From Fistulifera solaris (lineage: Eukaryota): 64,000 nucleotides of DNA. Below are positions 17,230 through 41,084 of the stretch, one piece after another (the first letter of the stretch is position 1; every line of letters starts with the position of its first letter). Below the pieces are notes generated by a model. It was not told the DNA's origin, did not search any database, and saw only the letters and a program-made list of their open reading frames with translations. The position numbers and the translations under genes are program-made. The stretch lies in the NCBI GenBank assembly GCA_030295235.1, contig AP026144.1, positions 124,001-188,000 of the forward strand. Reading direction: 5' to 3'.

Positions 17230-17822
17230 GAGTTTGATTTTATTCACACACACACACAGAAACAATCTGACGGTAGTACCAGTAATGCGATAGTACCCAG
17301 GTAAGTTTGCTTTGAAGGACGACTTTTTGGAAAGACGAAGACAAAAGGAATTGATGAAAAGAGGGAGAAAAAAAAACTACATGGTTACCTGGTACCGGTA
17401 GTCTTCCACGTGGATGACAATCGACAAGGAATGAAGGATTGGGATGTGACAATTGACAATTGCATGTCGGACGACAGTCAGATAGTCGCGGTGCGCTGTG
17501 ATCGAAGAAGAATATCATCAATCATCATCATCATCGGCGGAGTGCCTACTTGTCATTGGATACACATAACCGTTTCCCCTATCTATCCATACCAACGGAC
17601 AAATTTTAAGTCCGAATTGGTCCGCGAAAACAGAAAAGGGCGACCCTCTATTGGCGTACGAAGTAAATAAAAAATAGGTGGCAGAAGGAACAATCGTGTG
17701 AGCGGCAGAAACAAAAGAGCGTTGCGCAAAACAGAGAAATAGACATCTCACATCTCACATACCCCTAGAGTATTCATTCTTTTATAGATCCAAACAACAA
17801 CAAAAGAAAAAGAAAACAAATC

Positions 17823-19295
17823 ATGTCGAGTCTATCATACAAAGATAATCCTGGTGAAACATCGACGTATGGCGAGGACGCCTTTCCGCCCACGGCGAGC
17901 GTCTTTCGATCGAACGACGACAACGCCTCGACAGCGACCTCACGCCGTCGGAAGATTTGCTGCTGCTTGCCACGCCCGAAATCGCGACGTGGTGTTTGGA
18001 TGTTGCGAGCAGTCTTTGCCTTTGGATTGCTCTTGATGGCTGTCATCGGAGTGGCCGTCTATCTTGGAATGCAGAATTCTTCGTCCACGCCCCGCAATGT
18101 CGGTCCCTTGATCTCGTCAGAAGAGATGGATCGCTACTTACGTCAAGCCGTAGGAGCAAATGAATTGGAAAACAGAGACTCTTACACGAGTCTAGCCTAC
18201 CGATGGATGCTGCAAAATCCGTTTTCGTTACAAGAATTTCGTATGCGTGTGGAAGATCGTGTCTTGCAGCGCTACGCCCTCGCGTGTTTGTACTACGCCA
18301 CTTACCGCGTCAACAACGACTGGCTTCGTTACAATCAAGGTTTATTGGATGCTCAACCTCAAGACATTTTCGCCTGGACCGAAAGCCAAGGTTGGTTGGT
18401 ATACGCCAACGAGTGTGACTGGTACGGTATCACTTGCAATCAGTTCGGCTACGTCACCAGTTTGGACCTGGGCTCGAACGAGTTGACTGGAGAAATCCCT
18501 CCGCAGTTGCAGTACTTGAGTCACGGTCTAGAATTTTTGAATATCGAAGGCAACTACGCGTACAATGTTCATCCCCACTTTCTGGGAAAGCTGACCAATC
18601 TCAAGTACTTGTACATGAAGAGTTCATTGTTCGAGAGCGACGGTATTCCGCTGGTATTCGCTGCACTCACGAATTTAGAAGAATTCGATTGCTCGCACAC
18701 CATGTTTCACGGACCGCTACGCGAAGATATTTTCGAGAACATGGCACAGCTCCGGTATTTGGAAATTTCTGGCAATCAAGTGAACGGTACTCTCCCACAA
18801 TCCCTCATCAGTTTGCCCAATCTCAAGTATTTTTATGCTGATAGCGTAGGACTGACGGGCAATTTGGAGTTTTTGCAAGACATGAGTGCCTTAGTGGAGA
18901 CTTGGTTGGATCGCAATCCGACCTTGACAGGCACTCTTCCCACGGTTTTGGGACCACAGTTGGAGTCGCTGAGTTTGACACGCAACAATATCACGAGCAG
19001 TATTCCAAACGAGTGGGGTAGCCACTCCAAGTTGAAGCACTTGTGGTTGTACAGCAATTATTTGTACGGTTCCATCCCTCATTCCTTCCGAAAGTTGTCT
19101 CAATTACAGACGTTTGCAATCGAAGACAACTTGTTCACTGGAAATGTCGAGCACATGTGCACTGATTTGAGTATCTCAGAGTTTCAAGTCGACTGTGAAA
19201 TGGATTGCAGTTGCTGCAGTTGTTGTGGACTAGAATGCACCGGTGAAGGGATTGAACGTCTCAGTAACACAAAGTTACTGAGACACATCATATGA
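17823..19295 (+). CDS. Type II membrane leucine-rich-repeat protein (diatom-expanded family)
   Basis: N-terminal TM helix, QRYALACLYYAT and ECDWYGITC cap, plant-type LxLxxNxLTGxIP repeats, C-terminal DCxxxCSCC. Confidence 0.9.
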   Translation: MSSLSYKDNPGETSTYGEDAFPPTASVFRSNDDNASTATSRRRKICCCLPRPKSRRGVWMLRAVFAFGLLLMAVIGVAVYLGMQNSSSTPRNVGPLISSEEMDRYLRQAVGANELENRDSYTSLAYRWMLQNPFSLQEFRMRVEDRVLQRYALACLYYATYRVNNDWLRYNQGLLDAQPQDIFAWTESQGWLVYANECDWYGITCNQFGYVTSLDLGSNELTGEIPPQLQYLSHGLEFLNIEGNYAYNVHPHFLGKLTNLKYLYMKSSLFESDGIPLVFAALTNLEEFDCSHTMFHGPLREDIFENMAQLRYLEISGNQVNGTLPQSLISLPNLKYFYADSVGLTGNLEFLQDMSALVETWLDRNPTLTGTLPTVLGPQLESLSLTRNNITSSIPNEWGSHSKLKHLWLYSNYLYGSIPHSFRKLSQLQTFAIEDNLFTGNVEHMCTDLSISEFQVDCEMDCSCCSCCGLECTGEGIERLSNTKLLRHII

Positions 19296-19390: not shown

Positions 19391-19644
19391 TGACGTGAAA
19401 CGCGCTGTAAATCCTCACTAGCTAAATTTCCTTAACCTTAAAGGGAATTGACCTGACGGCGACATTGTGCAACGTCGCTCTAGACCTTAAATAGATTTGA
19501 TCACACGAATGCATCGATTGTGCAACGTCGACGTCATTGAGCGAAACCGGTTGAACTGAAATCTCGCGCTTGCGTCGATTGCTCTGCACGTCGTACGTGG
19601 TATCTTACCGTGTCTCCTCGCGTGCTTCATAAAGTCAATGACGT
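19391..19644. promoter_or_regulatory. Cluster of TGACGT (CRE/CCRE/aureo-box type bZIP) elements upstream of the repeat-protein gene
   Basis: TGACGT at 19391 and 19639, ACGTCA at 19531, duplicated ATTGTGCAACGTCG at 19464 and 19517, further ACGT cores near 19587. Confidence 0.45.
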
Positions 19645-19879
19645 CTCTTTCTCGTGTTGTTGGCGTGTTGTTAATACGTTTGCCGTCGCTGACAATCACT
19701 AGTATTCACGGTATCAATCATTACTTCTTCGTGTTCTTCAAAGGGTCTCCTATCTCATTCGTATTGAAGAGAAAGGGCCGAACATCTTGAGGGAAACCAA
19801 GCTGTGAAGACGAAACGATAAATCTTTTCTCCTCGCAAACTCATTTCTCCAGAACGACTTTTTCTCAACACCATTCATC

Positions 19880-22078
19880 ATGAGATTCTCTGCAGCCGTT
19901 TCGATGCTCTTTCTCTGCATCAATCCCCACGAGGGCTTTCAACTTTCAGGAAATTTTTCTCCCTTTGGTAAGAGAATGGCAGATGGAAAGGGAAGCAGCG
20001 CTTACCTTGAAAATATGAAAGCTTCATCCTCGTATGGGGCGTCCTCGCCGGCGACGCCCGTCAATGCTTTTGTGGGTGGCGCCGCCAACAACAACCAGGC
20101 TTACAGTGCTCCTCCCAGTAGCTACAGTCCCTTTGGAAAAAAGATGGCTGACGGAAAGTCGAGTAGCCCGTACTTGAATGCTGTTGCATCGAACGCACCG
20201 ACATCCTCTTCTTACGAATCTTACTCGGCACCTATCGAGACGTCTTTTGGCTCTGCTCCTGTCGCTCCATCGGCTTCTACCAGCAGTTATTTGAGCAGTA
20301 TGGGCGGTGCCAGTGCCGCTCCAACCAAGCCAGGAAGTTATTCACCATTTGGTCGTAAGATGGGCGACGGGAAGTCATCTAGCTCGTATTTGAACACTGT
20401 CGCTGGACCGTCTAAGGCTAGTGGTTCATACAGTCCTTTTGGTAAGAAGATGGCTGACGGCAAATCGAGTAGCCCATATTTGAATAGTGTCGCTTCCGCT
20501 TCACCAGCATCAGCTTCTTTTTCGACACCTCTTGAGACTTCTTCTGGGCCTTCTGCCGTGGCTCCGCCGGCTTCTACCAGCAGTTATTTGAGCAGTATGG
20601 GCGGTGCCAGTGCCGCTCCAACCAAGCCAGGAAGTTATTCACCATTTGGTCGTAAGATGGGCGACGGGAAGTCATCTAGCTCGTATTTGAACACTGTCGC
20701 TGGACCGTCTAAGGCTAGTGGTTCATACAGTCCTTTTGGTAAGAAGATGGCTGACGGCAAATCGAGTAGCCCATATTTGAATAGTGTCGCTTCCGCTTCA
20801 CCAGCATCAGCTTCTTTTTCGACACCTCTTGAGACTTCTTCTGGGCCTTCTGCCGTGGCTCCGCCGGCTTCGACCAGCAGTTATTTGAGCAGTATGGGCG
20901 GTGCCAGTGCCGCTCCAACCAAGCCAGGAAGTTATTCACCATTTGGTCGTAAGATGGGCGACGGGAAGTCATCTAGCTCGTATTTGAACACTGTCGCTGG
21001 ACCGTCTAAGGCTAGCGGTGCATACAGTCCTTTTGGCAAGAAGATGGCTGACGGCAAATCGAGCAGTCCATACTTGAATGCCGTCGCTTCCGCTACGTCG
21101 GCTTCTGCTTCGTACGATTCGTATTCGGCCCCTGTTCAATCTGCTGCACCCGTTCAATCTTCTGAGCCTTCTGCCGTGGCTCCGCCGGCTTCGACCAGCA
21201 GTTATTTGAGCAGTATGGGCGGTACCAGTGCCGCTCCAACCAAGCCAGGAAGTTATTCACCATTTGGTCGTAAGATGGGCGACGGGAAGTCATCTAGCTC
21301 GTATTTGAACACTGTCGCTGGACCGTCTAAGGCTAGCGGTGCATACAGTCCTTTTGGCAAGAAGATGGCTGACGGCAAATCGAGCAGTCCATACTTGAAT
21401 GCCGTCGCTTCCGCTACGTCGGCTTCTGCTTCGTACGATTCGTATTCGGCCCCTGTTCAATCTGCTGCACCCGTTCAATCTTCTGAGCCTTCTGCCGTGG
21501 CTCCGCCGGCTTCGACCAGCAGTTATTTGAGCAGTATGGGCGGTGCCAGTGCCGCTCCAACCAAGCCAGGAAGTTATTCACCATTTGGTCGTAAGATGGG
21601 CGACGGGAAGTCATCTAGCTCGTATTTGAACACTGTCGCTGGACCGTCTAAGGCTAGCGGTGCATACAGTCCTTTTGGTAAGAAGATGGCTGACGGCAAA
21701 TCGAGCAGTCCATACTTGAATGCCGTCGCTTCCGCTACGTCGGCTTCTGCTTCCTACGAATCGTACATTGCTCCCCCCACGTCCAGCTACGCTCCCACTC
21801 CTGTTTCAGCACCACCGTCGGCATCAACTTTCTCGCAAACCCCAGCCGCTCCTGCAACTGCTGCTTCGACTGGCTTTTCATACTTGAATACATTGGCACC
21901 CGCGAATCCAGCTCCATTCAAGTACGCGCCAATAGACGGAAAGATGGGGGATGCGAGATCGGGAAATAGTTACTTGGACGGTCTTCGCAGCTACCAGCCA
22001 GTTTCGAATTCTTACGGGTCACTCCAGGACTCGTTCTCAAGTGCTACGGGTGTGAATGAAATGTCTGGACGTCAGTAA
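19880..22078 (+). CDS. Predicted plastid-targeted, Ser/Ala/Pro-rich disordered repeat protein (candidate pyrenoid linker)
   Basis: Intact 732-aa ORF; signal peptide MRFSAAVSMLFLCINPHEG followed by F; 12 SPFG(K/R)(K/R)M(A/G)DGK motifs plus xYL motifs; no globular domain. Confidence 0.85.
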   Translation: MRFSAAVSMLFLCINPHEGFQLSGNFSPFGKRMADGKGSSAYLENMKASSSYGASSPATPVNAFVGGAANNNQAYSAPPSSYSPFGKKMADGKSSSPYLNAVASNAPTSSSYESYSAPIETSFGSAPVAPSASTSSYLSSMGGASAAPTKPGSYSPFGRKMGDGKSSSSYLNTVAGPSKASGSYSPFGKKMADGKSSSPYLNSVASASPASASFSTPLETSSGPSAVAPPASTSSYLSSMGGASAAPTKPGSYSPFGRKMGDGKSSSSYLNTVAGPSKASGSYSPFGKKMADGKSSSPYLNSVASASPASASFSTPLETSSGPSAVAPPASTSSYLSSMGGASAAPTKPGSYSPFGRKMGDGKSSSSYLNTVAGPSKASGAYSPFGKKMADGKSSSPYLNAVASATSASASYDSYSAPVQSAAPVQSSEPSAVAPPASTSSYLSSMGGTSAAPTKPGSYSPFGRKMGDGKSSSSYLNTVAGPSKASGAYSPFGKKMADGKSSSPYLNAVASATSASASYDSYSAPVQSAAPVQSSEPSAVAPPASTSSYLSSMGGASAAPTKPGSYSPFGRKMGDGKSSSSYLNTVAGPSKASGAYSPFGKKMADGKSSSPYLNAVASATSASASYESYIAPPTSSYAPTPVSAPPSASTFSQTPAAPATAASTGFSYLNTLAPANPAPFKYAPIDGKMGDARSGNSYLDGLRSYQPVSNSYGSLQDSFSSATGVNEMSGRQ
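20274..21760 (+). repeat. Intragenic near-perfect tandem repeat, units of 297, 297, 321 and 321 bp plus a partial fifth
   Basis: Anchor cttc(t/g)ac recurs at 20274, 20571, 20868, 21189 and 21510; units are nearly identical at the DNA level and multiples of 3. Confidence 0.95.
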
Positions 22079-22171: not shown

Positions 22172-23086
22172 CTAATGTAATCTAGCGGCGGTATGATCCT
22201 TAGGTTTGTCTTTGCTAAGGAAGCCATGCGTGACTTCAGTGAGACGCTCTCGAATCATCATCAGCAATGCACTTTTAAGCAGTGTATGCAACAGTTGCAA
22301 GCGACATCCTTGATACAAACCAGAACATCCCCTTTCCATGTATTCTTTTCGCAACGTACTCCACAAATCCCCTTGAATCGATTGTGTCATGAGCAACATT
22401 TTCGCGCGAATGAGTGGATATGTCGCTATTGTAGCTACTAGTTTCGCAACAGCACCCATGCAGAACGCTTCCACCCAATGCAGTGTCCGTTTTTGTTGAT
22501 GACTGGCGTTGCGATGAAGTATTCTATGTCGGAGGCTGTCAAAGACAGTGTAATGAATGGACGGGTTGGCGCAAAGCAGGAGAGATGGCAACAATCCTTT
22601 CCAGTATTTAGATAGCTCTGAAGCGTATTGCTGAATAATTTCAAGATTTATTGGGGGAGATTGCGCTTGTTGAGGCTTGATTACCCTTTGATTATTCATG
22701 TGAATCTGTTGCTGTTGTTGCTCTTGCGTCGAAATGACATCCAACGGCAAAGTCACGAAAGTGTTACCGATAGCTGCTACTGCGGCCATCAGCAAGCGTA
22801 ACAGGACAGAAGGAGACTGCTGGTGGTGGTGATTCCTAACCATGCGTTGAACTGAGGAATACAGATAAAAATAAATAAAATTGCTCGCTGCCGTGTGCGC
22901 GCTTTTCCATTGAATTCCGGCTAAAAAGGAATGCAGTTTTGTGGAAGAAGATAACGCAGGACATCCCTGAATCAAAGTCTTGTAAACATCGAGCGGATAG
23001 AAAGACCATAAGGAGATTAAAGCGGCCAAAGTACCAGCTACGGCATCACTGAGTGCCCTATTAGACTGAGTTTCCGAGAATGACAT
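22172..23086 (-). CDS. Mitochondrial carrier family protein, peroxisomal adenine nucleotide/cofactor carrier-like (PMP34/ANT1 type)
   Basis: Px(D/E)xx(K/R)-type signatures YPLDVYKT, LPLDVIST, YPLIRAK; YWKGLLPSLLLCANPSIHYTVFD; GAVAKLVATIATYP. Confidence 0.85.
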   Translation of the reverse strand: MSFSETQSNRALSDAVAGTLAALISLWSFYPLDVYKTLIQGCPALSSSTKLHSFLAGIQWKSAHTAASNFIYFYLYSSVQRMVRNHHHQQSPSVLLRLLMAAVAAIGNTFVTLPLDVISTQEQQQQQIHMNNQRVIKPQQAQSPPINLEIIQQYASELSKYWKGLLPSLLLCANPSIHYTVFDSLRHRILHRNASHQQKRTLHWVEAFCMGAVAKLVATIATYPLIRAKMLLMTQSIQGDLWSTLRKEYMERGCSGLYQGCRLQLLHTLLKSALLMMIRERLTEVTHGFLSKDKPKDHTAARLH

Positions 23087-37367: not shown

Positions 37368-40300
37368 ATGAATCGTCCTAGTGGACCTGCCACCGAAAGA
37401 GAGGAAGATTTCGAAGCCAAACTCATTTTCCTAAGAATAGAACCTCTCATCAATCCACTCTTACAAGCCACTCAAGAATACCGAGATCTTGTGACAGCCC
37501 CGTCACACTCTGTGAAGGTGCTTTTGTCTGTTTTGAAAATACAGGCGCAACTTTTACAGCGGCTTGACAGTCTTCTCCCTAATCTCGCGACGCAGCACAA
37601 ACTCTCGGAAACGCAGCTCTCCAATTCATTGTGTCTTTTGTTAGATTACATTCTTTTTCCGATTCTGGCGATTTTAAAGGGAACTGTCATTGGCTGGAAT
37701 GGAGAGGAACGAATCGACAAGGAACAATTGACGGTCAAGAGTGCTTCTTTTCTTGTCGTACAACAAACGGCTTCGCTTCTTTCGACGTTGCTGGATCTTC
37801 TGCGATATCCACCAGAAGAGAAGTTTATTGGTTGTCTTATAGCATGCGCCTTTGCTCTCCCGACCAGTCAGTATATGGCAAATGATTATCGCCATGAAAC
37901 GAGTTTAGATCGAGGGGACAACTGTTTGAAGCATTTGCTGGAGAGTATCCGTCGATTGGTGGGACACCCGGGATTGACGCAAAAACAAACGTTTGCTACA
38001 TTATTGGCGGGTGCACTGGATGGAGCTTTACTCGCTCGATTGGCCGATTGCATGGTTGCCGTCGTAGAGCCTTCTGAATCGGGAAAATGTGCCAATGCAG
38101 ACTTGCAACTCCAAGCACTGCTAACACTGCGAATTATCATGAAGACCGTTCCCATGGCGTCCGTCTGGAGGCATATCTTTCCGGGAATATTTGCTGGCCT
38201 CTATCGTTGCTGCTTGCAGGCCATGCGCATTGGTCAACAATCATCGAAATTGGCTGCCAATGCCCTAACCGTCATCGCGGATTTGTTACGATTTTGCGTG
38301 CAATCAGACAAGGTCTCTTTACAAAAAACCAGCAAGGTTTCGTTGGAAAACACGGTAACTGAAAAATTGAAAGCATTGACGTTGAACAGTGGCAATGAAA
38401 TAGGTCAATTGAGTTCTAGCAACGTTGAGAGCAACGACTTTGTCTCCCGAGCAAACAAATTACTACCCATGCCAATGACTGTTCTGATGAATATGACGAC
38501 AATGGCTTGCACCAAACAGATTCGAGAAGGTCTTCTTGAGCTTCTATCCGTCGTACTGGTTCAATCGTCGTCGTTTTGGGAACCAGGTAGCAATGTTGTC
38601 ACCGTGGCTTTTGAATCGTGTCTTGTTCTTTCGCAGGACATTCAACAAGACGTTTCCGCTGCAGCTATCGTGATCCTTACCGATTACAGAAAGAAAATAG
38701 GGTCAGAGTATTTGGGCTCGATTCCTCGTGTTGTCGGCCCGCGACTTATGTCTATAGTCAATGAACTGCCTACTTTGATGGAAGCAGCCAGAGAAACGGA
38801 CCTTGTCTCGTCGCTACGATTGGTAATTGGATACTTGGAAGCGATGACACTGTCTAAAGATACCGCAAAAAAAATTAAAGGCTTTCATACTGACAGAAGA
38901 GAACATGTTCATAATCAGGGACGTCTTCAGCTCACTTTGCAATCCTCTTGCGCAAAGCAACAATGTCGAAGACATGGAGCCAATGTCTCTTTCATCGCTC
39001 GTACTGAAGAACGAGCGGAAAGTAAAAATAATTGCATTAGACGAACAAAATGGGGAAGTCCAAAACGCCATTGAATCGGCGCTCTCTAGTTTGTCAAGGA
39101 TATTAGGGACGAAAGCAACCGTTTATGTAGTCGATCAATGTGTGGCAGATCTACATTCTGACGTCGAATCACGTCATTCGGCTGGTTTTTCGCAAGTTGG
39201 ACTGAATCAGGTCGTTTGGGCGAATTCTTGGACCGGCACAGTATACTTTTCGTCTTTTCTATTAAAAGGTGTTACAAAGTCGGAAGTGAAGTGTCGCAGA
39301 GAAAAATATATTCATCAATTATCACGTTCTACCCTTCCTCTGATCTTCAGTGAATCGATTTGGGGTCTGCCTATCGATGATGGTTTAGCATCGATAAAGA
39401 AATCGGAAGGAGTTACGATGCTAATCAATCAGCAAAACTCAATTCCAAGCGCAAAGGCTGCAAACGCTGATTTGATAGTGGCGCTTTTGAGCATTGTCGA
39501 GTCGATTGTTAATTTTGTGGATGCTAGTCCATTGGACGGGCACTTTGATGTTGCATTACTTCCTCTCCTCGAAAAGGCTATATCTAAATCGTCCAAAGTT
39601 TCAAATCGGGCACTTCATGTACTTTGCAAGCTTGAAAAACTAGCCTCCGACTCAGGTATTGACGCCTTGATTGTCAACAAAGTTGATTCGATATTTGGAG
39701 CGATCTTATTAAAAGTTCGCATTCCAGGGGGGCGACCGGTCCAGAAAGGGAGCGCAATAAGCAACGATATTCTGGTAACTTCTGAGGTAGCCATTTTCGC
39801 AATCAGCTCAATCACACATTCTTTCGCGAATGCTTCTCCCAGGGATTCTCAAAACATGGATGCTAGAGTAATTATGTCGCCACAAGAAGTCGTCCGAGAA
39901 TTGACGTTGCGTTTCGATCTCGCTGGGTCAAATGTGCAATCCGACGTTAGTTTGGCTACTGTCTTCTTGACTCTTTTCCATAATATCTCGGCTCTTCTTC
40001 ATGCTTATTACAAGTGCTGTTTCAAGGAAATGAATCAAGGAGCGTGTTTTCATTCTCCAGAGCCTTGGCTTGACATACTAGAGCCTTACCGAATAACTTC
40101 AGTTACGCCTGAGGATGGTTTTGCCGAGTATAGGAGAGGAAAAGAGCAAACGAACGAAGATATTCCTGGTGCTCTGACTTTACCTACAAGTCATTTGCAA
40201 AGAGACACCGATTTCATGGCGCTTCTCATTGCAAGAAACGCCTCCACACTTTCGCATCCAAGTTTGTCAATACAAATAAAAAGCTGCGACGCTCTGATTT

Positions 40301-41084
40301 CTGCCTTTCACTTTCTTGCCATCATAGCAGCAGTACCAATTCGCTCTGGCGAAGAAGAAACAAACGGTCCTCGCACTGCTGTTTTAAGGCAGATACACAG
40401 CGTGTGGCCTGCTGTTGCCGGTAGATTGAAATCAGTGAGCGCCGAAGTGCGACCATCGAATAAGACGTCATTGGTCATCAAATATCCCTCGTCGCAGCCG
40501 ATGCATATTGATGTTAGTGAAAAAAGAGTTTTTCTTTCGAAAGTATTCGAGCTTATTGCTGGAATGGCAGAAGCATCCGACGATTTCATGGCTAGAAGAT
40601 TTAGAGATGTAGTTTGGCCCTCTATCGGTGGATTGATGACACACTTTTTCAAAGGATCGAACGCTCAACAATCCGCGCATACGAGTCAATTTTTGGAAAG
40701 TGAGATTGGATTATTGTGCTCCATTATAAGTTGCTGTGGTCGAATGTTCAAGCACCGCGAAACGGGGGAAGCCTTAGCAGGGTTGATTCCTTCAATAGGG
40801 GGTATTATCATCCCTTTTATCGGAGACGAGAACAAGTGCGTCGCTGATATATGCATTGATACGCTGAAAGCCATGTGCTCTGTGGATAGTGACGCACTGC
40901 GAAGACCACTATTTGAGTTGGCTGGCATTTCTTTCAGAGCGTGCCCTCTTTTGACCAATCGGAAACCTCTGTCACGTTGACAAGCCGCAATTTCATTCAT
41001 AGCAAAGACTTTGCAGCTGAAGAAGCGGCTAAACACTTGATTGAATTTATAGAAAGCCTTCCCGAACAACCTCTTTTATCTTAA
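37368..41084 (+). CDS. TTI1: TTI1-like HEAT-repeat protein (TTT complex); frameshifts near 38880 and 40960
   Basis: LLDYILFPI, IFPGIFAGL, IHSVWPAV, DFMARRFRDVVWP and VDSDAL segments recalled as typical of TTI1; overlapping ORFs 37368..39074 and 38905..40980. Confidence 0.72.

Follow-up and report, generated by a model that had tools for sequence, protein, structure and literature searches.

A gene for a disordered, positively charged repeat protein in Fistulifera solaris and its motif family, a tentative candidate for a diatom pyrenoid linker

A disordered repeat protein gene in Fistulifera solaris

We analysed the 64,000 nucleotides (nt) from 124,001 to 188,000 on the forward strand of contig AP026144.1 (assembly GCA_030295235.1) of the diatom Fistulifera solaris; this whole stretch is hereafter the window, and positions are counted from its first letter. 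On its plus strand lies an intron-less open reading frame (ORF) of 732 amino acids (aa), uninterrupted from ATG to stop, whose product is here called P0001 and for which motif-bearing homologues exist. P0001 is the product of a genuine diatom gene, a repeat protein that is positively charged and, by prediction, disordered. Its leader suggests a protein that is likely imported into the plastid, and its architecture makes it a credible, if tentative, candidate for a linker or scaffold of the pyrenoid. No other ORF of the window contains the P0001-type motif. The features of the gene are as follows.

19880..22078, plus strand: ORF encoding P0001, stop codon included
19880..19936, plus strand: putative signal peptide of the endoplasmic reticulum (ER) type, MRFSAAVSMLFLCINPHEG (aa 1-19), with a hydrophobic core and a hand-placed cleavage site
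19937..19939, plus strand: Phe20, the +1 residue past the putative cleavage site (ASAFAP-type position; ASAFind cleavage score 4.70, transit score 4.24)
19955..20014, plus strand: first motif copy, FSPFGKRMADGKGSSAYLEN (aa 26-45), starting 6 residues past Phe20
20123..21737, plus strand: tandem array, the single one reported by Tandem Repeats Finder (321-nt period, 5.2 copies, 93% matches)
21923..21976, plus strand: degenerate motif copy, YAPIDGKMGDARSGNSYL (aa 682-699), fitting the G[RK]KM[AG]D..SGNSYLDGL form of the relatives P0046 and P0016
21986..22075, plus strand: non-repetitive C-terminal tail (...SNSYGSLQDSFSSATG...), common to P0046, P0018, P0057-59, P0052, P0061 and P0062

Ser, Ala, Pro and Gly make up 59% of the body of P0001 (S 24.6, A 14.8, P 10.2 and G 9.7% of the 732-aa protein, with Y at 6.0 and K at 5.9%). 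There is one Cys and zero Trp, and 53 Lys and Arg stand against 28 Asp and Glu, giving a net charge of +24.5 and an isoelectric point (pI) of 9.56. P0001 is predicted to be intrinsically disordered: AlphaFold2, on an alignment of only 2 rows, returned a mean predicted local distance difference test score (pLDDT) of 35.8, with 721 of 732 residues below 50 and zero helix or strand elements. A Pfam scan found no folded domain in P0001. One candidate, FNIII-A_GpJ (28.1 bits vs a cut-off of 27), was rejected as compositional bias because not one stretch passes singly.

An earlier note on this DNA, made from the letters without database searches, had described the intact 732-aa ORF, the leader with Phe at +1, the disordered Ser/Ala/Pro/Gly body, twelve motifs plus a degenerate one and about five repeat units. 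All of the details that were checked proved correct, and the disorder prediction that it had called for is the AlphaFold2 model just described, devoid of secondary structure.

Motif copies are kept by purifying selection

The motif [YF]SPFG[KR][KR]M[AG]DGK occurs 12 times, at aa 26, 82, 154, 184, 253, 283, 352, 382, 459, 489, 566 and 596, that is, at spacings of 30 and 56-77 aa, and each copy is followed by (G/S)SS(A/P/S)YL. Throughout the protein there are 19 YL dipeptides, every one of which fits Y-L-x-x-[LVMI]. At the protein level the repeats form five units in tandem, each of 99-107 aa. At the DNA level the array contains 11 of the 12 motif copies (beginning at nt 20123, 20339, 20429, 20636, 20726, 20933, 21023, 21254, 21344, 21575 and 21665) plus five SSYLSSMGG elements.

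Six distinct DNA versions are found among the 12 motif copies, and comparison of all pairs of these versions yields 111 synonymous vs 51 non-synonymous codon differences. For the Ser that invariably follows Tyr the codons AGT, TCA and TCT are all in use; Leu has CTT or TTG, and the K/R position AAG or CGT. Since synonymous differences predominate and Ser is drawn from both of its codon families, the amino acids of the motif are kept by purifying selection, beyond recent duplication.

A small diatom family shares the motif

A word-indexed search with P0001 as query returned one homologue, P0002 (E 1.8e-31, 32% identity). Exhaustive HMMER searching of 1.84 billion representatives with a two-sequence profile gave 20 proteins at E<=1e-3, and a 16-sequence profile gave 21 at E<=0.01, 15 of them new; both profile searches combined amount to 35 related protein clusters. 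Two members carry an organism name, both of them diatoms (Mayamaea pseudoterrestris, GKY90407.1, and Pseudo-nitzschia australis, MMETSP0139), and the remaining labels read 'hypothetical protein'. Searches of the ESM Atlas returned zero usable matches for P0001, and for P0003 a best score of 0.77 to an arthropod GYR/YLP low-complexity cluster, which we discarded as noise.

The family consensus, taken from 92 strict instances in 23 representative proteins, is [K/P]-K-x-S-Y-S-P-F-G-[S/T]-K-P-K-A-V, with a YL, YM, YF or LY dipeptide 14-17 residues past the motif Tyr in 62 of the 92. The fuller family motif reads K-K-x-S-Y-S-P-F-G-x-K-P-K-A...Y-L-x-x-hydrophobic, a conserved unit of ~22 residues that recurs mostly every 30-90 aa across the family, and D/S-Y-[LM]-S-[SA]-[LM]-G-G stands ahead of many repeat units. 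P0001 belongs to a subfamily (P0046/P0016, P0057-59, P0052, P0061, P0062, P0018 and P0009) characterized by the motif variant G[RK]KM[AG]D...S-Y-L and by the common C-terminal tail. A Pfam scan of 14 relatives found no real domain, DNA-binding and lipid-binding domains likewise not being found. No description of the motif or of the family was found in the literature, a search whose scope left aside the supplementary candidate tables of 10.1101/2023.10.26.564148 and 10.1101/2023.10.25.564039. The family is new and uncharacterised.

Two groups of relatives deviate from the consensus. P0020, P0047 and P0054 have the variant Y-S-P-F-G-K-K-W-(G/A)-P, with a Trp behind the basic pair, which is the family's sole approach to the K-W-S-P pattern of the Rubisco linker PYCO1 (see below). 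P0056 (1229 aa) and P0050 (930 aa) have ASA-FNSYLAGL leaders (here and below, the hyphen before Phe marks the cleavage site) and repeats decayed to S-Y-S-G-F-G-V-K and K-F-T-V-F-G-R-K-P; such degenerate repeats show the extent to which the motif can drift.

The motif occurs in more than one architecture

Pure repeat proteins (P0001-3, P0046 and P0057-59) are one of several architectures that contain the motif. Another is represented by P0008, for which AlphaFold2 predicts helices at 46-105, 137-185 and 218-406 (pLDDT mostly 74-92); three hydrophobic segments occupy 119-141, 181-200 and 443-468, and the motifs are borne by a tail at 547-891 with pLDDT <50. P0060, P0048, P0051, P0055 and P0005 resemble P0008 in that a leader whose +1 residue is Phe is combined with long helices rich in charge, internal hydrophobic segments and a disordered, motif-bearing C-terminal tail. 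In P0053 the motif tail is joined to an N-terminal part of another kind, which is not helical, contains a hydrophobic 'FAFVNFARFAVPLRIGLALG' stretch, has no Pfam match and may be a third type of anchor.

A comparable arrangement is found in Chlamydomonas, where a single Rubisco-binding motif is present in the linker EPYC1, the membrane proteins RBMP1/2 and the SMC-like SAGA1/2, and analogous motif codes of different sequence are expected in other lineages by the authors of that review (PMC10473226, in part). Like the Chlamydomonas common-motif proteins (RBMP1/2, SAGA1/2 and Cre03.g172700), the diatom family has the same short motif both in a soluble repeat protein and in membrane or long-helix proteins. 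The two systems differ in the motif itself, in lineage and in Rubisco form, and Rubisco is the partner of the motif in Chlamydomonas but only a proposed one in the diatom family.

Leaders with Phe at +1 point to the plastid

The leader of P0001 begins with Met-Arg, reaches a 9-residue Kyte-Doolittle peak of 2.72 at aa 6-14 and ends in ...NPHEG-FQLSG. Including P0001, 16 of 36 representatives have a complete leader, the other 20 being fragments or truncated models that were excluded. At the hand-placed cleavage sites the +1 residue is Phe in 15 of these 16 and Leu in P0002. The contexts comprise HEG-FQL (P0001), VGG-FQL, AYG-FSS, SNA-FSG and TCS-FVS as well as the textbook-like forms SASA-FNS (P0056), SDA-FVSPP (P0060), TNA-FVP (P0008) and AAT-FVP (P0005).

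One of F, W, Y or L has to stand at +1 for a plastid call, and import depends critically on Phe (PMC4329603, in part). With the ASAFind matrix given in Table S2 of that source and a transit-score cut-off of 2, transit scores of 4.01-5.53 were obtained for 15 of the 16 members; P0001, for which the earlier note had proposed this check, scores 4.24 at its hand-placed site. A free scan for the best ASAFind cleavage score was also tried and rejected: internal positions score as high as the leader sites (null median 4.73, 95th percentile 5.85). Because such a scan picks any Phe, the hand-placed sites were preferred, and because the Phe term dominates the score and internal scans score equally high, the weight of the argument rests on the position of Phe relative to the leader. 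Judged by these leaders, P0001 is a putative plastid protein whose import we regard as likely.

Comparison with known Rubisco linkers

In Phaeodactylum tricornutum the Rubisco linker is PYCO1 (Phatr3_J49957). Its repeats number six, of ~80 aa each, its pI is 10.03, its KWSPRGGS stickers bind the small subunit via an essential Trp, and it has GTGYNP Tyr stickers in addition. PYCO1 has zero BLAST homologues outside P. tricornutum, and its sticker was not found in other P. tricornutum proteins. For Thalassiosira pseudonana a linker is not known, and pyrenoid proteomics there yielded zero repeat proteins.

P0001 and PYCO1 are both diatom tandem-repeat proteins, mostly disordered and basic (pI 9.56 vs 10.03), with repeats of 99-107 aa vs ~80 aa. 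Their stickers are alike in pattern only: KWSPRGGS combined with GTGYNP in PYCO1, K.SYSPFG.K combined with SYLxx-hydrophobic in the P0001 family. The two also differ in distribution, the one sticker having been found, in P. tricornutum, in PYCO1 only whereas the P0001-family motif is spread over several architectures.

Linkers as defined by FLIPPer are largely disordered, have a pI >8 and contain at least 3 repeats spaced 20-120 residues, and on disorder, pI and spacing P0001 falls within this definition (pLDDT 35.8, pI 9.56, 12 motifs at 30-77 aa). The green-algal linkers EPYC1, CsLinker and SUPA1 share with it the disorder, the pI >8, the presence of at least 3 repeats and a sticker spacing within 20-120 residues; unlike P0001, they have repeated helical Rubisco-binding elements, they bind the green-type form IB Rubisco, and there is no sequence kinship between them and P0001. 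A complex prediction with four copies of P0001 aa 132-212 gave a score of 0.02 and a mark of 0.32, which speaks neither for nor against an interaction.

Transcripts, upstream region and neighbouring genes

Two further features concern the expression of the gene.

21825..22066, plus strand: identical 242-nt contig from freshwater metatranscriptome run X2
19391..19644, both strands: three TGACGT elements (19391 plus, 19531 minus, 19639 plus), 241-489 nt upstream of the ATG

The run X2 contig has 0 differing letters at a depth of 5.4, DNA carry-over being possible. On the gene, runs X4 and X5 contribute no more than a single short piece each, of 195 and 164 nt. Run X1 was dropped as expression evidence for P0001: it is probably DNA, because it spans intergenic DNA as well.

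The three TGACGT sites compare with 0.65 expected, and at least three are found in 3.8% of the 584-nt windows of the 64 kb (uncorrected for multiple looks). TGACGT/C is known from P. tricornutum genes induced at low CO2 as their CO2-cAMP-responsive element (PMC11142338, in part), and the upstream elements may be taken as a weak hint at CO2-responsive regulation. At 19701-19824, just upstream of the ATG, one run X1 contig omits 122 nt (ends GT..AT) and has an extra AA after 19872. We read this gap as a probable allelic indel of the 5' region and not as an intron.

Upstream of the repeat gene, a gene at 17823-19295 on the plus strand encodes a protein in which leucine-rich repeats (Pfam LRR_8, 1.1e-18) come after a hydrophobic segment. 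The stretch 17811-18901 is present in two versions in each of runs X1, X4 and X5, and because the versions differ at dozens of sites they suggest two haplotypes or a close paralogue. The convergent neighbour at 22172-23086 on the minus strand encodes a mitochondrial-carrier-family protein (Pfam Mito_carr, 2.2e-27), with a stop-to-stop distance of ~95 nt to the repeat gene. Farther away, the long ORFs 37368-39074 and 38905-40980 on the plus strand overlap in different frames, the second with a TTI1 C-terminal tetratricopeptide repeat domain, and probably represent a single gene containing an intron or a change of frame. A BUB1-like neighbour gene is fast-evolving: it has relatives at 90% and 86% identity, and the nearest named ones are those of the pennate diatoms Cylindrotheca (42%), Nitzschia inconspicua (37%) and a member of the Bacillariaceae (37%). 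The window is accordingly nuclear DNA of a diatom, probably a freshwater one.

A possible role in the pyrenoid and its alternatives

We propose that P0001, as a nucleus-encoded, basic and disordered protein, would be imported into the plastid and there display its ~12 motif copies and 19 Y-L-x-x-hydrophobic elements on flexible Ser/Ala/Pro spacers. In this form it could serve as a multivalent scaffold for a condensate within the plastid, for which the pyrenoid matrix is the most probable candidate. Its aromatic/basic motifs would bind a repeated site on form ID Rubisco, one another, or both, and the holoenzymes would be cross-linked as a result. The relatives with long helices and hydrophobic segments may act as tethers between that matrix and membranes or other structures. 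From its sequence P0001 is a credible candidate for such a pyrenoid linker or scaffold, though we put it forward tentatively and with confidence on the low side.

By analogy with Chlamydomonas, the proposal may be extended to the family as a whole, a step that is possible and, in our view, doubtful. The motif would then do in diatoms what the common Rubisco-binding motif does in Chlamydomonas: where PYCO1 is lacking, soluble multivalent carriers such as P0001 would gather form ID Rubisco into the pyrenoid matrix, and proteins of the types P0008, P0060 and P0005 would use the motif to attach the pyrenoid-penetrating thylakoid or the shell to this matrix.

Several observations weigh against a plastid linker. 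As regards import, the cleavage sites were set by eye, right behind the small residue that closes the leader, and the 16 N-termini are not independent because they fall into ~9 sequence types. P0002, with its Leu at +1, has a transit score of 1.30, under the cut-off. Plastid import is reported to require a net positive transit charge (PMC4329603, in part); the net charge of residues +1 to +20 ranges from -1 to +2 across the family and is zero or negative in 8 of the 16 members, P0001 itself having +2 with 1 acidic residue. The basic character of the transit-like region is weak. The first motif, at 6 residues past Phe20, leaves little space for a cleavable transit peptide. The stromal import via Phe at +1 that the earlier note had read from the leader is upheld by the Phe in 15 of 16 relatives and by transit scores of 4.0-5.5, and is weakened by P0002 and by the low basicity of the transit-like region.

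As regards Rubisco, both the enzyme and the pyrenoid enter our proposal by inference, since none of the results links P0001 to either. Trp is essential in PYCO1 and P0001 has zero Trp. KWSP, WSPR, GTGYNP and GYNP have 0 occurrences in the 62 proteins P0001-P0062. Searches of PDB chains by phmmer (E<=10) with P0001, P0003 and the 16-sequence profile A2 gave 0, 0 and 3 hits, the latter by chance and none of them PYCO1, in a chain set where the presence of a PYCO1 fragment chain is unverified and in a comparison that did not extend to the full-length PYCO1 sequence. The helical binding elements included in the FLIPPer description have no equivalent in P0001, for which AlphaFold2 shows no helix (on the 2-row alignment; folding upon binding is possible). 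In pairwise comparison of P0001 with 6 homologues, sticker identity exceeds spacer identity in 5 (by only 0.01 in 2 of these) and is lower in 1, a measure that does not discriminate because Ser/Ala spacers align by composition. Finally, no T. pseudonana or P. tricornutum name is found among the family matches (35 clusters); judging from so small a family, with neither species named in it, P0001 and its relatives cannot be a general diatom linker. Of what the earlier note had suggested, the linker-like architecture is borne out by the pI of 9.56, the predicted disorder and the 30-77 aa spacing, while its likeness to PYCO1 is one of pattern, with no similarity. Profile searches akin to the one that it had recommended brought out the 35 related clusters, and the comparison with PYCO1 attached to it showed no similarity.

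The same plastid signals, disorder, charge and common motif, none of which is Rubisco-specific, would fit a multivalent scaffold or adaptor that is imported into the plastid and serves some hub besides Rubisco, such as the nucleoid, the thylakoid or envelope architecture, or another stromal condensate. The basic S-K-P-K-rich tails on membrane-anchored coiled coils may resemble the nucleoid anchors of the plant MFP1/PEND type, and the outcome of the T. pseudonana pyrenoid proteomics points in the same direction, an argument that is weak because no family match is named as T. pseudonana. The motif, however, is rich in Tyr, Phe, Pro and Gly, as is more usual for an aromatic sticker or a short linear motif that binds proteins than for an element that binds DNA, and the 14 Pfam-scanned family members have no DNA-binding or lipid-binding domain. 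We rate a non-Rubisco hub as possible at a low probability.

A secreted protein of the cell wall or biosilica, with an ER signal peptide only, is less likely. It would be a Ser/Tyr/Lys-rich component like the cingulins or Amphora AC3362, with which, as with the silaffins, P0001 has in common a putative signal peptide and the low-complexity Ser/Tyr/Lys-rich repeats; Tyr/Lys-rich repeat proteins with signal peptides do occur in the insoluble diatom wall matrix (PMC4220933, in part). In P0001 the repeats start almost at once behind the N-terminal leader, the body is rich in Ser, Tyr and Lys, and half of the relatives have a transit-like region of weak charge. P0002 attains K>=10 and S>=18 per 100 aa, the thresholds of biosilica-type windows, in 114 windows. 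P0001, unlike proteins of the silaffin/cingulin type, has 0 KxxK, 0 RxL, a lower Lys density (<=8 Lys per 100 aa) and 0 windows at those thresholds. The silaffin pentalysine cluster, five Lys within 12-14 residues (PMC9650480), is not visible in P0001, the sequence having been read by eye and uncounted. Relatives with ~190-residue helices and internal hydrophobic segments are likewise unlike known wall proteins. The +1 residue is the family-conserved Phe, canonical ASA-F contexts included, and we know of no secreted diatom family in which Phe at +1 is conserved.

SPFG is one flavour of phenylalanine-glycine (FG) repeat, and work on periplastidal proteins also lies behind the argument from Phe at +1 used here. 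An FG-repeat-like selective barrier, or a low-complexity resident of the ER or the periplastidal compartment with no stromal role, is very improbable: the relative P0026 does have a Nucleoporin_FG match, at a sub-threshold 19.9 bits vs a cut-off of 32.2, but Pfam gives no Nucleoporin_FG row for P0001, the conserved unit of ~22 residues with its K-P-K-A and Y-L is far longer than an FG dipeptide, and P0001, unlike FG nucleoporins, has a leader peptide, whose Phe at +1 argues for transit past the periplastidal compartment (PMC4329603, in part).

Implications for pyrenoid assembly in diatoms

Diatom pyrenoids account for a large share of global CO2 fixation. PYCO1 is the only known diatom Rubisco linker, and the diatoms that lack it leave an open niche. 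A plastid-looking motif family with both linker-like and tether-like architectures provides a concrete, testable hypothesis on how red-type pyrenoids are assembled. If P0001 proves to belong to the wall, or to be a scaffold of the nucleoid, its family would still be a new conserved diatom motif family, of narrower interest. If the proposal holds for the whole family, the motif would be a code for the assembly of red-type pyrenoids that evolved independently, and the family would supply synthetic Rubisco condensates with a new part.

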